A stretch of 64,000 bases of DNA from Patescibacteria group bacterium (GTDB lineage: Bacteria > Patescibacteriota > Microgenomatia > UBA1400 > PJMF01): contig JBBDKV010000013.1 in assembly GCA_040879165.1 (NCBI GenBank), positions 71,967 to 135,966 on the forward strand, given 5' to 3'. Position numbers and translations under genes: made by a program. The notes below the pieces were generated by a model. It ran no database searches. It was not told where the DNA came from and saw nothing but the letters and a program-made list of their open reading frames with translations. Of this stretch, positions 59,200-64,000 are shown piece after piece (position 1 is the stretch's first letter; the number at the start of each line of letters is the position of its first letter).

Positions 59200-59786
59200 A
59201 CAACGCTCGTGTTGCTAGCAGACTTGTAGTGAAATAAGAATAATACAGTGATCGCTTCCTTATTTCGCTATAAGTCTAGTATACCGCGTATTCGCGTCGG
59301 TACTATGGTAAGTAGTACGATTGTTAAAGAGTGCGCACACTCGCTAAAAAGTGAAGAAAGTCAAAGGTATCTCAGAATCAAAAAATCCAATACGTATTCA
59401 TTGCTGAATAGATAATGAACTTTTTTCTCCTGGGACACAGTAAAAGCCATGATGTAGCGCTACACGTTATGAAAGCGATAACATCAACCAAATTGTATGT
59501 TCAATCGACACTTAGTACAGTTAAGCTAAACCTGTCACCAGGCTTACACTGACTGCCTATCAACGTGGTAGTCTCCCACGGGTCTAATGGAGATGATTAA
59601 TCTTGAGTAAGGCTTCCCGCTTAGATGCTTTCAGCGGTTATCCTGTAGAAATGTAGCTACCCTGCACTGCGCTTGACAGCAACAACAGGTACACTAGGGA
59701 TTTCCTCACCCCGGTCCTCTCGTACTAGGGGCAAATTCTCTCAATCATCTAACGCTGACGGCGGATAGAGGCCGACCTGTCTCACG

Positions 59787-60519
59787 CATGTTAATTCCTC
59801 CTGTTACCAGGGGCATGGACTATACCACCACCCTACATAATTACGTTTGTAGGGGACCGACGTGTTAGCCCTGAATCTATGTTCAGGACTCTGACCATTC
59901 GTTACATGGTCAAGTCTCTACGGGGTCAATATTCCCTTGTTTCTGAGGTGATTACGAACCACCCGAGCTAGTACTGTGCGTTTTTTGGAATAATTTAATC
60001 TTCCAAATTGATCAATCATTTGTGCGAGTTGCACAAAATCTTGAGGAGATTGAATATGTTCAGAAAAATCTAAAATTTGCAACATAAGTTTCGCCTGTTT
60101 TTGTTTCAATAACAAAAACGGAGAAACCGCCTGCAAAATATATCGAATTGATGGACGATCACCGATCGTAAACTCGATAATTCCATCATTTCGTTTCCTG
60201 ATATATCCAACACCTAAACGCTTACGAAGTTGTTCAAATAACACTGTCGCTGTTTCTTTTTGAAATAAAACAACTGAAGGAGCTATTTGAAAATCATATT
60301 TGTAGGTTACATTAGGCTTTAGGCGAACATAAATGCTGCCGTCAGCGTCTAAAAAACCAGCCAAATAAATTAACAACTCACGTTTTGTCATAGTACTAAC
60401 AGAAATACGACTTCCCTCGGGATTATCCTAACACATGACAGGTTAATAAATGTGATAGGACTTCCCCGATATGAGTCAGTTTTAGCTTCCCACATTACTG
60501 TGGGGCACCGCCATAGTTG
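59787..60519 (-). mobile_element. Group I-type intron in 23S rRNA (E. coli ~2593 region, the I-CreI-type site) carrying a LAGLIDADG homing endonuclease ORF.
   Basis: The exon sequence GGGTTCAGACCGT | CGTGAGACAGG is split by a 733-nt insert. The insert ends in G and follows a U. It contains a single-motif LAGLIDADG ORF. Confidence 0.8.
59918..60391 (-). CDS. LAGLIDADG homing endonuclease, single-motif and I-CreI-like.
   Basis: LIYLAGFLDADGSIYV motif; 157 aa; located inside the intron. Confidence 0.85.
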   Translation of the reverse strand: MTKRELLIYLAGFLDADGSIYVRLKPNVTYKYDFQIAPSVVLFQKETATVLFEQLRKRLGVGYIRKRNDGIIEFTIGDRPSIRYILQAVSPFLLLKQKQAKLMLQILDFSEHIQSPQDFVQLAQMIDQFGRLNYSKKRTVLARVVRNHLRNKGILTP

Positions 60520-60603
60520 ACGGTCTGAACCCAGCTCGCGTACCGCTTTAATTGGCGAACAGACAAACCCTTGGGACCTTCTTCAGCCCCAGGATGCGAT
60601 GCA

Positions 60604-61490
60604 CATAAATCCTGTATTTCTACAAGTGTAGACTATATCTTCACCCCTCATTTCAATGCGAGGGGGTCTGGCGTATTATAGAAGGTTAGATTTATCCACT
60701 TAAAAGTGGATAGGCCTTTCTATCTCGTTATAAAAACTCAGTCGTTACGGGGTCAAAGAAAGTTTGTACTGCATACAGCTGACAATATGTGGCGAAATTG
60801 TGGTCAAAAATCTATCTCTACTTCTCGCTGGTATATGCAAACGCGCATATTTTCCCGCAAAATGAATCGATGTTTCTATCCCATAATTTTGCAAAAGTAC
60901 ATATTGCAGTTGTTTATGCTCTAGTAGAGTAAATGAAGATGTGCAGAGATATGCGCCAGATTTATCTGTGCGCATATAGCCATCGTCCATATACCATACT
61001 GCTAAGGCTATGGGTGTTTTTAATAAAGATTGTATGTTGGAAGGAATAATTTTCTTTCCATCTACATAAAACAATGATCTGTAGTGGTCGAATAGAGAAA
61101 GACTGAGTGTGGCAAAACGCCAACGCTTCGTCATCTTCTGATCTCGTCCACTATGTAGCATTGCTTTAGGAGGTCTTCCGACAAAAGGCTTTAAAACGCT
61201 GGTACAGCCAGGTTACATATTCCTTTTGTCTATCTGTTTGTTCAATTTTTAATCGAACATTAAGACCATTCTTTTCTAAACAACCATCACCTAAAATTTT
61301 TTCAACAAGTATTTGTTCTTGTTGAAAGGACAAACTTTCTCGACTTCCCACGGTATTCCCATTTATATCCATATCTCCAAAGTATCATAAATACCCGAAG
61401 AAAAGAAGAAGATATATGAAGGGTTCACCGTTATAAGCCAGATGTTTTCTCAGGAATTACTTCCTGAGTGACCCAAACCCTTAATGGGTT
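60604..61490 (-). mobile_element. Second group I-type intron in 23S rRNA, in the peptidyl-transferase-centre region (after ...GATGTCGGCT, E. coli ~2500-2512). It carries a frameshifted double-motif LAGLIDADG gene.
   Basis: Exons ACCTCGATGTCGGCT | CATCGCATCCTGG are separated by 887 nt. The intron ends in G. Confidence 0.75.
60745..61372 (-). pseudogene. LAGLIDADG homing endonuclease split into two ORFs, 61166-61372 and 60745-61161, by a frameshift.
   Basis: The upstream ORF has ILGDGCLEKNG (motif 1). The downstream ORF, in a different frame, has LAVWYMDDGY (motif 2). Frames differ by +1. Confidence 0.6.
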
Positions 61491-62063
61491 AAGCCGACAT
61501 CGAGGTAGCAAACCGCGCCGACGCTAGGGACGCTTAGGCGCGATAACTCTGTTATCCCCAAGGTAGCTTTTATCCGATAAGCCCGGTGTCTTCCACAAAA
61601 CACACGAGGATCACTATAACCTGCTTTCGCACCTGCTCGGCTTGTATGCCTCACAGTCAAGCACCCGTATGCTATTGCACGTCCAGCCTGATTTCCATCC
61701 AGGCTAAGGGTACCATTGCGCGCTTGCGTTACCTTTTAGCAAGCAACCTCCCCAGTTAAACTACCCACCAAACAGTGTCTCCTCTGAAGTTTGCATTCAG
61801 ATTGGGTGAGCTATTGTACACAAAACGAGTGGTATTTCACTGATGTCCCTCACATAATGTGAGGGACTCCCACCTATACTAAACAATTCCATATACAACA
61901 ACAGTGTCAAGTTGTAGTAAAGCTCTATGGGGTCTTTTTGTCCTGCCGTCAGTAGGCCGCATCTTCACAGCCATTTCAATTTCGCCGAGTAGTAGTTCAA
62001 GACAGTGTGAGACTGGTTAAACCTTTCGTGCGGGTCGCCAATTAAGCGACAAGGAACTTCGCT

Positions 62064-63148
62064 CATTAATACATTTTTACATGTATCTTGTTACTATCCC
62101 ATTAAATGGGACGATGTAGACATTTCTGCTACATTCTCTACGTCGCCGTAGAGGTCGGACTATCTCTTATCACCAGTGTGGTGATCCTAGCGTATAGTCT
62201 CTGAGGATTCTTGAAACACGTCTTGAAAACAATATTTTCTTGTTCTTCCTTTTCCCACATTTATTTTCTCACGCAGTACTAATAATTCTCTCAAACCATC
62301 TTGAGAAAGATGTTTTTTAAGAACCATTATTTTCACTGCTGATTTGAATAAATTAAAATTAGTTTTCTTTCGTTTAGAAAAGAAACTAAATTTTTGAAAA
62401 AATGGAACAATATTTCTTGATAAATCAATTGGACTGGTCACATCATACGAATAGAGACCATCTCTTCTTCTTTTCAGAATACCGCATTTGAATATTTGGA
62501 GTAGTAAAAGAAGCATTGTTTTTTCTTTTTGAGAAACATTAAAACTAAGTACGGGTTGCCACCCAACACTATAGTCTTTCTTTTTTCTCAAAGAGATATT
62601 AAAACTTCCTTCGCCATCAACAAATCCTGCGATATATCCCCCAAGTTGCTGAGAAATTGATATATCATTTGCTTCAACCGTGTAGTCAAGTCTTTCCTGC
62701 TGGTTTTCTGCTAATAGAACATTTTTAGTGCTACTCATAATGATGGCATTCTTACTATATAGTAAGAATCTTACATAAAGCGTAGCGACTAGCTCTACTT
62801 CTTCAGCCCTTGAATTCCTTTTTCTGGGCACAGATTTTCCAGCATATAGCTAGGTTTTACTATGGCAACGATTTTGTTTTACCATAGAACAGTTCACTTT
62901 TGTTACTATTCCGCTAAAGCGGAACGCTCTGCACATTTCTGACAGAGTCTGCATGTCTCCATGCAGGTCGGACTATATCATCTTTTCTTTGAATAAAAGA
63001 AAAGGTTAGCGTATAGTCTCTGAGGATTTCCCGCTAAGCGGGATCTTTCCTGCTGATTGTCTCTATTCAATTGATTTTCACTGCAATTTTACAATTACGA
63101 GTACAATTGACCTCACGAGATGTTCCAGCATTTGGCTAACTTTTATAA
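62064..63148 (-). mobile_element. Intervening sequence in the 23S helix-69/71 region (between E. coli U1917 and A1932). It contains two homologous group I-type catalytic cores and one LAGLIDADG ORF.
   Basis: The 5' exon ends GTAACTAT (U1917) and is paired by an intron IGS GUAGUUAU. The 3' exon resumes AGCGAAGTTCCTTGTCG. Two P7-like GACTA...TAGTC core copies lie at 62152-62215 and 62966-63030, with homologous P9 regions. Confidence 0.7.
62187..62738 (-). CDS. LAGLIDADG homing endonuclease.
   Basis: YIAGFVDGEGSF motif. The start was set at MSSTKNV; the ORF track begins at 62831. Confidence 0.8.
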   Translation of the reverse strand: MSSTKNVLLAENQQERLDYTVEANDISISQQLGGYIAGFVDGEGSFNISLRKKKDYSVGWQPVLSFNVSQKEKTMLLLLLQIFKCGILKRRRDGLYSYDVTSPIDLSRNIVPFFQKFSFFSKRKKTNFNLFKSAVKIMVLKKHLSQDGLRELLVLREKINVGKGRTRKYCFQDVFQESSETIR

Positions 63149-64000
63149 CTACAATGTTTCATAGTTACTGCTGCCGTTCACCGGGGCTTCGATTGTAAGC
63201 TTATCTCGCCGAAGCGAGAAAAACCCACGCACTTAACCTTCCGGCACTGGGCAGGCTTCAGCCCGTATACGGCCTCTTACGAGTTTGCACGGACCTGTGT
63301 TTTTGGTAAACAGTCCATCTCACAACTTTAGCTGCGTCCCTACACCATCCCTCACCAAAATGGTGAGGGGGGTGAGGGAAGGGCATCTCTCGAAATTACG
63401 CCCAGCTGTTTTGCCGAATTCCTTAAACTACTTTCTCTCGCTCTCCTTAGTCTACTCGACCAGACCACCTGTGTCGGTTATCGGTACGATTTGATATGAG
63501 TTTCCTTGCGAAGCTTTTCCAGGATGCTGAAATCACGCACATCTCTCTTGCCCGAAGGCTCAAAAGACCCATCACACTTCAAATAAACGCTTGTCCGGAT
63601 TTGCCTAGACAAACTGTTTTAGTGCTTAGAGACAACATTCACTGCTGCCCATACGCTATCCTGCACCGTCCCTCCCCAAGTCAAACAACTCATACCAAGG
63701 ACTGGAATATTAACCAGTAATCCATCGGCTACCCCGCCACTATAGCGGGCTCACCTTAGGGTCGCCTAACCCGCACACGACGAACGTGGGTGCGGAAACC
63801 TTGGTCATTCGGAGTTGAGGATTCTCACCTCAATTTCGTTACTCATGCCGGCATTCTCACTTCTGATCGCTCCAGCGGCTCCTCACGGGCCACCTTCAAT
63901 GCACACAGAACGCTCCCTTACCACTCCCTTGTCAAAAGACAAAGAAATCCTAAGCTTCGGTTGAATGTTTAAGCCTCGTTGAATTTTCGGCGCATATACC

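Follow-up and report, generated by a model that had tools for sequence, protein, structure and literature searches.

A Patescibacteria 23S rRNA gene predicted to contain four group I introns, one of them an L1931-type ribozyme with an L1917-type endonuclease gene

Insertions in the ribosomal RNA (rRNA) genes of the candidate phyla radiation (CPR) have been surveyed extensively, with 82% of 23S genes carrying insertions, up to 16 per gene, and 45% detected as group I (Tsurumaki 2024, PMC11270868). LAGLIDADG_1 open reading frames (ORFs) occur there at positions 1917, 1931, and 2593 among other sites, ORF-less or degenerate versions are common, and one CPR enzyme, I-ShaI, was shown to cleave its target; the introduction of the same paper credits Brown et al. 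2015 with the report that the insertions are absent from transcripts. In the cyanobacterium Synechococcus sp. C9, the 23S gene carries endonuclease-bearing introns at L1917, L1931, and L2593 with single-motif LAGLIDADG enzymes, all three genes being full-length and clustering by insertion site (Haugen et al. 2007, PMC1995217, which also lists a Coxiella L1951 intron). Here we describe a 64,000-nucleotide stretch (the window) of the genome of a Patescibacteria (CPR) group bacterium (NCBI GenBank assembly GCA_040879165.1, contig JBBDKV010000013.1, positions 71,967 to 135,966 of the forward strand), in which the 3' ~1.8 kb of the 23S rRNA is, in all likelihood, interrupted by four group I introns, at Escherichia coli positions 1917, 1931, 2511, and 2593. 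Multi-intron 23S genes being already well documented in CPR bacteria, the locus brings no new principle. It is, however, a fully mapped example in which a single gene displays every stage of the homing cycle, from an intact endonuclease gene through a frameshifted one to an intron devoid of an ORF; the termini of its endonuclease ORFs are encoded by covarying ribozyme helices; and it holds an L1917-clade gene in an L1931 ribozyme, which bears on the movement of genes between introns and on the sharing of enzymes by neighbours.

The 23S gene is encoded on the minus strand and runs from 64000, where the window ends, down to ~59495 (all positions are those of the window). It matches the Rfam bacterial large-subunit (LSU) model, the window end cutting the gene at model position 1154, and the portion inside the window is the 3' two-thirds of the gene, with ~2.7 kb of its 4.5 kb being intron. 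The E. coli numbering was set from landmarks, the junction strings were located, and the exons were spliced by hand and aligned with E. coli 23S using MAFFT. The alignment placed insertions after U1917, U1931, U2511, and U2593 and ran without interruption across every junction. Identity between the exons and E. coli 23S is only 69%. The insertion sites are universally conserved, belonging to helix 69 and the peptidyl-transferase region. In the order of transcription, the exon ending at U1917 (63161-64000, its 5' part beyond the edge) is followed by intron I1 (62895-63160, 266 nt, site L1917), a 14-nt mini-exon, AACUGUUCUAUGGU, corresponding to E. coli 1918-1931 (62881-62894), intron I2 (62064-62880, 817 nt, site L1931), the exon for E. 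coli 1932-2511 (61492-62063), intron I3 (60602-61491, 890 nt, site L2511), an 82-nt exon for E. coli 2512-2593 (60520-60601; Rfam LSU, 71.4 bits), intron I4 (59787-60519, 733 nt, site L2593), and the last exon, from E. coli 2594 to an approximate 3' end (59495-59786; Rfam LSU, 222.5 bits, model 2652-2912 at 59505-59754). An earlier note on this DNA had proposed at least three introns, each with a LAGLIDADG ORF, at known 23S homing sites. The group I assignment was borne out by the P1 pairings, terminal G residues, covarying cores, and Rfam matches of ORF-less homologues described below, and the count becomes four, as what it called the 1917/1931 region proved to be two introns around the mini-exon. 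The claim that each carries an ORF applies to three of the four, I1 being ORF-less, and one of those three genes, that of I3, is frameshifted.

For comparison, we used 80 loci from reference genomes, which were gathered through relatives of the I3 endonuclease and from which introns were extracted at the same four sites; the genome of the window is not among them. These and other contigs bear three-digit labels below. One related contig, L005, has no insert at 1917, 1931, or 2593, and at 2511 the sequence is continuous in many loci. The existence of these intron-less alleles in relatives confirms the splice junctions.

The 3' end of the gene called for some care. A one-pass Rfam LSU alignment put it at 61403, an artefact ruled out by the E. 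coli alignment and by sub-window searches, that of 59190-61500 recovering the last two exons at 60537-60601 (model 2538-2602) and at the model 2652-2912 segment given above. The one-pass match (61403-64000) pushes the 3' domain of the 23S rRNA into intron 3 and calls the gene end ~1.9 kb early. Automated covariance-model annotation of rRNA genes would thus misplace the gene end where large introns occur.

As rRNA operons are hard to assemble and bin, and as several related contigs bear implausible taxon labels, one might suspect that rRNA fragments and introns of different metagenome populations were joined here into a chimera. We regard this as extremely improbable, since an independent Logan assembly of run SRR27977663 contains a 3272-nt contig (L004) that reproduces the window exactly from exon 1 to the third intron, frameshift included, a second Logan contig of that run covers the I4 endonuclease gene, and the twin-intron layout recurs in other genomes. 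With regard to the host, the 138-amino-acid (aa) ORF of I3 is identical to an NCBI protein of a metagenome-assembled genome (MAG) labelled 'Patescibacteria group bacterium', the closest 23S among the loci compared (90.8%) comes from a Candidatus Pacebacteria MAG, and the neighbouring genes in the window are typical of Patescibacteria/CPR genomes.

Several features support the reading of all four inserts as group I introns at rRNA homing sites. With the junctions fixed by exon homology, every insert is preceded by U at its 5' boundary and ends in UG at its 3' boundary, and a P1 guide pairing that places the splice-site U in a U·G wobble can be read from the sequence in all four cases. This U·G is invariant in homologous introns (15/15 at L2511 and 4/4 at L2593). 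The internal guide sequence (IGS) of I1, GUAGUU, pairs with exon AACUAU; that of I2, GCCAUA, pairs with UAUGGU, and a P10 of AGCGA/UCGUU is present; I3 has a P1 of GGCU/GGUC plus an extension hairpin; and the IGS of I4, GCGGU, pairs with ACCGU. A P3-P9 core that includes the P3/P7 pseudoknot is present in each insert, the P3 helices being CCUAGC/GCUAGG in I2 (with P7 GACUAU/AUAGUC), UCUGGC/GCCAGA in I3, and ACUGAC/GUCGGU in I4. In I3, the P6/P6a stem encloses the ORF; a first hand model of this intron, with UUAUAA/UUAUAA as P3 and without P7.1 and P7.2, was wrong and was replaced using ORF-less homologues. P7 leads straight to P3' in I1 and I2, a type published as IC1-like, whereas in I3 and I4 the helices P7.1 and P7.2 intervene before P3', an IA-like architecture.

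Among homologous introns, compensatory changes preserve the core helices. To count these, the L6 inserts were cut out, homologous introns were aligned, and pairs were scored on hand-built structures with slid structures as controls. In the L1917/L1931 family (9 sequences), 95.0% of cells were paired and both sides had changed in 22 pairs; the corresponding values were 91.9% and 39 pairs for the L2511 family (15 sequences) and 92.6% and 29 pairs for the L2593 family (4 sequences). Slid controls were paired in 33-49% of cells over all three families (37-44% for L2593). P7 was invariant, and covariation was strong in P2, P3, P6a, P8, and P9. In the searches with Rfam LSU and group I models that the earlier note had proposed, only I1 (Intron_gpI at 62949-63189, 79.1 bits) exceeded the group I gathering threshold of 50 bits. 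I2 gave a partial match of 27.6 bits (E 4e-4), I3 one of 32.3 bits (E 7e-6), and I4 weak matches of 18.3 and 13.4 bits. We attribute these low in-place scores to the 500-630 nt of ORF that sit within each fold. ORF-less homologues from L015 do exceed the threshold, with 86.6 bits at L1931 and 54.1 bits for a 253-nt intron at L2511.

From these features, we infer that the pre-rRNA would lose the four introns by guanosine-initiated self-splicing, which would restore helix 69 and the peptidyl-transferase centre. A number of points weigh against this interpretation. Splicing is read here from DNA and not from RNA; three of the inserts fall under the Rfam threshold in place, as do the ORF-less L2593 homologues of L007 and L013; the L2593 covariation comes from four sequences and a structure built on the sequence in the window; and the count of four covers the window portion of a gene whose 5' ~1.15 kb lies beyond the edge. 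In addition, at least one bacterial L1931 intron, that of Simkania, is reported not to be spliced out.

The first of two alternatives that draw on these points treats the inserts as intervening sequences or expansion segments of the rRNA, either retained or excised by RNase III without ligation to give a fragmented rRNA. The sub-threshold scores would suit it, as would the many short non-intron insertions that CPR 23S genes also have (PMC11270868). Nevertheless, we find it very improbable: intervening sequences typically occupy variable sites, and all four inserts lie inside universally conserved functional helices; each has the boundary residues, P1 guide pairing, and covarying P3-P9 helices of a group I intron; and the ORF-less L1931 and L2511 homologues score above the threshold. 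The second alternative is that the introns are genuine and at least one of them no longer splices, the gene copy being non-functional or the intron retained as reported for Simkania. One endonuclease gene, that of I3, is already decaying, and the 14-nt mini-exon could favour exon skipping, which is known for tandem group I introns (PMC10136302). The exons, however, keep universally conserved sequence that is gapless at every junction, and the ribozyme cores are intact and match the covarying consensus helices. Furthermore, the rRNA operon is usually present only once in a CPR genome, so that a dead copy would be lethal. We consider this second alternative improbable and retain four group I introns of the self-splicing type as the interpretation of the locus.

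An unusual detail of the gene concerns the twin introns I1 and I2. No ORF of at least 60 aa was found on the minus strand in I1, and as I1 matches both ribozyme halves of the endonuclease-bearing L1917 introns of relatives, it resembles such an intron without its L6 insert. The 14-nt spacing between the two introns is shared by L009, L010, L087, L089, and L090. A mirror arrangement, in which the L1917 intron houses the endonuclease gene and the L1931 intron, 14 nt downstream, is ORF-less, is present in L087, L090, and L010, and L089 has a cognate endonuclease gene in both its L1917 and its L1931 introns.

In the window, it is loop L6 of I2 that carries the gene, which encodes a single-motif LAGLIDADG_1 endonuclease of 183 aa from its ATG (62187-62738, minus strand; Pfam PF00961, E 1.5e-18) in a frame that is open from a GTG at 62831. 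The reading frame is intact, the motif is YIAGFVDGEGS, and among relatives in the PDB the protein resembles each half of I-SmaMI and I-OnuI. It is 50% and 42% identical to enzymes of L1917 introns, compared with 30-32% to other L1931-intron enzymes. In a scan of metagenomes, 19 relatives of the I2 endonuclease were recovered, and all 15 with a readable junction were at L1917. A neighbour-joining tree gave the I2 endonuclease a sister group of L1917 enzymes only (198/200 bootstraps) and separated the L1917-plus-window clade from the L1931 enzymes (139/200 bootstraps). The ribozyme, on the other hand, is L1931-type, with the guide sequence UUGCCAUAG and a 5' end 91% identical to that of the L1931 intron of L020. 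By phylogeny, then, the predicted I2 endonuclease is L1917-type, whereas its ribozyme is L1931-type and has the ORF-less I1 as its neighbour at a distance of 14 nt. This mismatch between gene and intron is a new detail, the clade being found otherwise only in L1917 introns.

The mismatch suggests that an endonuclease gene moved between adjacent homologous introns, for which recombination across the shared flanks AAUCAGCAGGAAAGAC...GAAUCCUCAGAGACUAUACG would be the likely route. The breakpoints could not be placed in I2 by BLAST comparison with L1917 and L1931 introns, because the two ribozymes are too alike outside P1. Going further, the twin introns at 1917 and 1931 may constitute one composite mobile unit that was made by an endonuclease-gene swap, a proposal we put forward tentatively and hold to be possible rather than probable. 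If the I2 enzyme still cuts a site centred on 1917, the ORF-less I1 would supply immunity while I2 carries the gene, and the two introns, 14 bp apart, would be converted together in a cis-linked form of 'collaborative homing'. The logic would be that of phage T4 mobE with the defunct I-TevIII (PMC2790892) and of the cyanophage enzyme F-CphI (PMC6083498), in which an extra-intronic endonuclease spreads an intron that shields the target. The parallel is drawn by analogy: mobE and F-CphI are free-standing phage genes, and here the gene would lie in the neighbouring intron. If the proposal is true, the locus would be a natural example of an endonuclease gene passing between adjacent homologous introns through recombination in a shared core.

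In contrast to that of I2, the gene in loop L6 of I3 is broken. It encodes an I-SceI-like, two-motif LAGLIDADG_2 endonuclease (60745-61372, minus strand), with Pfam PF03161 matching both of its pieces, a 68-aa ORF at 61166-61372 and a 138-aa ORF at 60745-61161. The lesion is one extra T (+1), which nucleotide alignment with L005, L007, and L008 places best in the T4 run at 61183-61186, and its deletion restores ...RFKAFVGRPPKAMLHSGRDQKMTKRWRF.... The motifs of the gene are ILGDGCL and WYMDDGY. The gene is probably a pseudogene. Programmed frameshifting was also considered and judged unlikely, because intact homologues are unshifted at this point and the nearest relative, L007, has a different lesion. 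Intact homologues have 205-208 aa, and one of them, P0002, matches I-SceI at E 6e-17. In the Pfam searches that the earlier note had called for, LAGLIDADG_1 was thus found in I2 and I4 as anticipated, whereas its other candidate, LAGLIDADG_3, was not, the split gene belonging to LAGLIDADG_2. The domain scores exceed the Pfam threshold for all three genes, and the acidic catalytic residue is present in the motif.

With the window counted, an intron sits at L2511 in 20 of the loci examined, some of them in MAGs that bear the names Thermoflexus, Armatimonadota, or Actinomycetota, although certain MAG labels are plainly unreliable. In the literature searched, no paper was found to name the site, and L2511 is not among the sites named in PMC11270868, which gives no numeric positions for its sites 23IS9-11. 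L2511 with its I-SceI-like enzyme may therefore be a homing site unnamed in the searchable literature, shared by CPR genomes and MAGs whose labels are those of non-CPR thermophiles. The same enzyme family also occurs at L2449-2452 in several loci, and I-SceI itself comes from the omega intron of yeast mitochondrial 21S rRNA at L2449. The intact homologues match it over nearly its full length, as ~208-aa monomers with two LAGLIDADG motifs; the window differs in its site, L2511, and in the frameshift of its copy. Meganucleases directed at a new 23S target might be obtained from the L2511 lineage.

The gene in loop L6 of I4 encodes a predicted I-CreI-like, single-motif LAGLIDADG_1 endonuclease of 157 aa (59918-60391, minus strand; Pfam PF00961, E 2.9e-11). 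Its reading frame is intact, with the motif YLAGFLDADGS and the catalytic Asp. It matches I-CreI and I-CvuI at E ~1e-25 over residues 4-148 and the native chain of I-MsoI at E ~1e-17 to 1e-16, and full-length similarity combined with residence after U2593 places it in the I-CreI subfamily. It shares its rRNA site with these chloroplast LSU enzymes and retains both the LAGFxDxDGS motif and the KQKQA region; its host is bacterial, and its activity and target are predicted from this resemblance.

All three endonuclease ORFs sit in L6 with ends that run into ribozyme core sequence. The I2 protein takes both its N-terminal NQQER and its C-terminal SETIR from the core, the latter (with its stop codon, 62188-62206) being encoded by UCAGAGACUAUACGCUAG of J6/7-P7-P3', as in I-ShaI. 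For the conserved N-terminal GNTVGSR of I3 (61339-61357), the coding sequence is the invariant P4'-P6 segment AAUACCGUGGGAAGUCGAG. The proteins of I3 and I4 both end in LTP before the stop codon (at 60737-60756 and 59911-59929, respectively) even though they belong to different Pfam families, this end being encoded by UUGACCCCGUAR of P6'/J6-7, which in I4 reads UUGACCCCGUAG. It is because the RNA imposes them that unrelated endonucleases have C-terminal peptides in common, and because the P6a that brackets the I3 ORF covaries, the codons at its ends are doubly used. Such overlaps were noted earlier for the intron ORFs of Synechococcus sp. C9, which extend into the ribozyme core (PMC1995217).

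The relatives of the window show these elements in various states. L005 has only the L2511 intron. In L007, the L2511 endonuclease gene (intron 425-1231) is truncated C-terminally by an ~80-nt deletion, a decay independent of the frameshift in the window, and the ORF-less L2593 intron (2069-2412) keeps the last ~15 codons of an I-CreI-like gene (..VVRNYLIQQGKLTP, followed by the stop codon). Minimal ORF-less L2511 introns of 253-365 nt are present in L015, L023, and L042. Occupancy and decay of this kind fit a cycle of gain, decay, and loss of homing elements and uphold the view of the earlier note that the locus is a hotspot of selfish-element turnover. In such a cycle, each intact endonuclease would cleave its cognate site in 23S alleles that have no intron there, whereupon repair would copy the intron in, and the ORF-less I1 and the frameshifted I3 gene would be later stages.

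The same note had taken a high density of introns to be characteristic of CPR lineages and organelles, which agrees with the CPR literature (82% of 23S genes with insertions) as far as CPR is concerned. Multi-intron 23S genes are not confined to CPR and organelles, because non-CPR, mostly thermophilic bacteria also have them, with one to four large insertions and I-SceI-like endonucleases near 1931, 2263, 2450, 2511, and 2593. Loci of this kind are L048 (AP024673.1, a complete genome of Fimbriimonadales), L037 and L042 (Armatimonadota), L025 (Hydrogenobacter), L033 and L043 (Thermocrinis), L059 (Pyrinomonas), and L031 (Thermoflexus). A different case is L020 (CAZESB010000006.1), which is labelled 'uncultured Pseudomonadales' and has a CPR-like multi-intron 23S with exons 85% identical to those of the window; loci labelled Gammaproteobacteria and Planctomycetia likewise bear CPR-like multi-intron 23S genes. 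The bins of all these are probably contaminated or mislabelled.

Elsewhere in the window, the 5S rRNA gene (59081-59197, minus strand; Rfam RF00001, 55.5 bits) lies downstream of the 23S gene across a spacer of ~300 nt (59198-59494), which contains a long near-perfect hairpin (59220-59277) that surfaced through a chance match to 'mir-499' (E 0.4-0.9) and may be an rRNA processing stem. Adjoining the 5S gene, 57373-58971 encodes a predicted surface protein of 532 aa with low-complexity sequence, whose N-terminal domain is of the purple-acid-phosphatase type and whose C-terminus holds a membrane anchor. Two divergent tRNA-Met (CAT) genes lie ~100 nt apart at 23902-23970 (minus strand) and 24069-24143 (plus strand), the former short (69 nt) and scoring only 44 bits with the Rfam tRNA model, and two PBP1A-like paralogues stand in tandem at 38905-41400 and 42803-45400.

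Among the systems described to date, the CPR insertions of PMC11270868 are the closest to those of the window. They share the host group, the sites 1917, 1931, and 2593, the clustering round the peptidyl-transferase centre, and the same mixture of ~180-aa LAGLIDADG_1 and ~210-aa LAGLIDADG_2 enzymes, ORF-less introns, and degenerate ORFs. I-ShaI and the I2 enzyme are 36% identical and have the core-encoded ...SETIR C-terminus in common. PMC11270868 describes no L1917-type endonuclease gene in an L1931 intron, and the window has one. The agreement with Synechococcus sp. C9 (PMC1995217) extends from the three shared sites to the ribozymes, as its L1917 and L1931 introns are IC1-like, in line with I1 and I2, and its L2593 intron has P7.1, P7.2, and a short P2, in line with I4. 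The window departs from it in that its L1917 intron is ORF-less, its L1931 intron holds a gene of the L1917 clade, and a fourth intron is present at L2511. The arrangement of I1 and I2 also has a counterpart. In the 23S gene of Coxiella burnetii, Raghavan et al. reportedly found in 2007 that group I introns at L1917 and L1951, one ORF-less and the other with an endonuclease gene, flank a 34-nt exon. Both genes thus have twin introns round a very short exon, at 1917 and 1951 with 34 nt between them in Coxiella and at 1917 and 1931 with 14 nt between them in the window.

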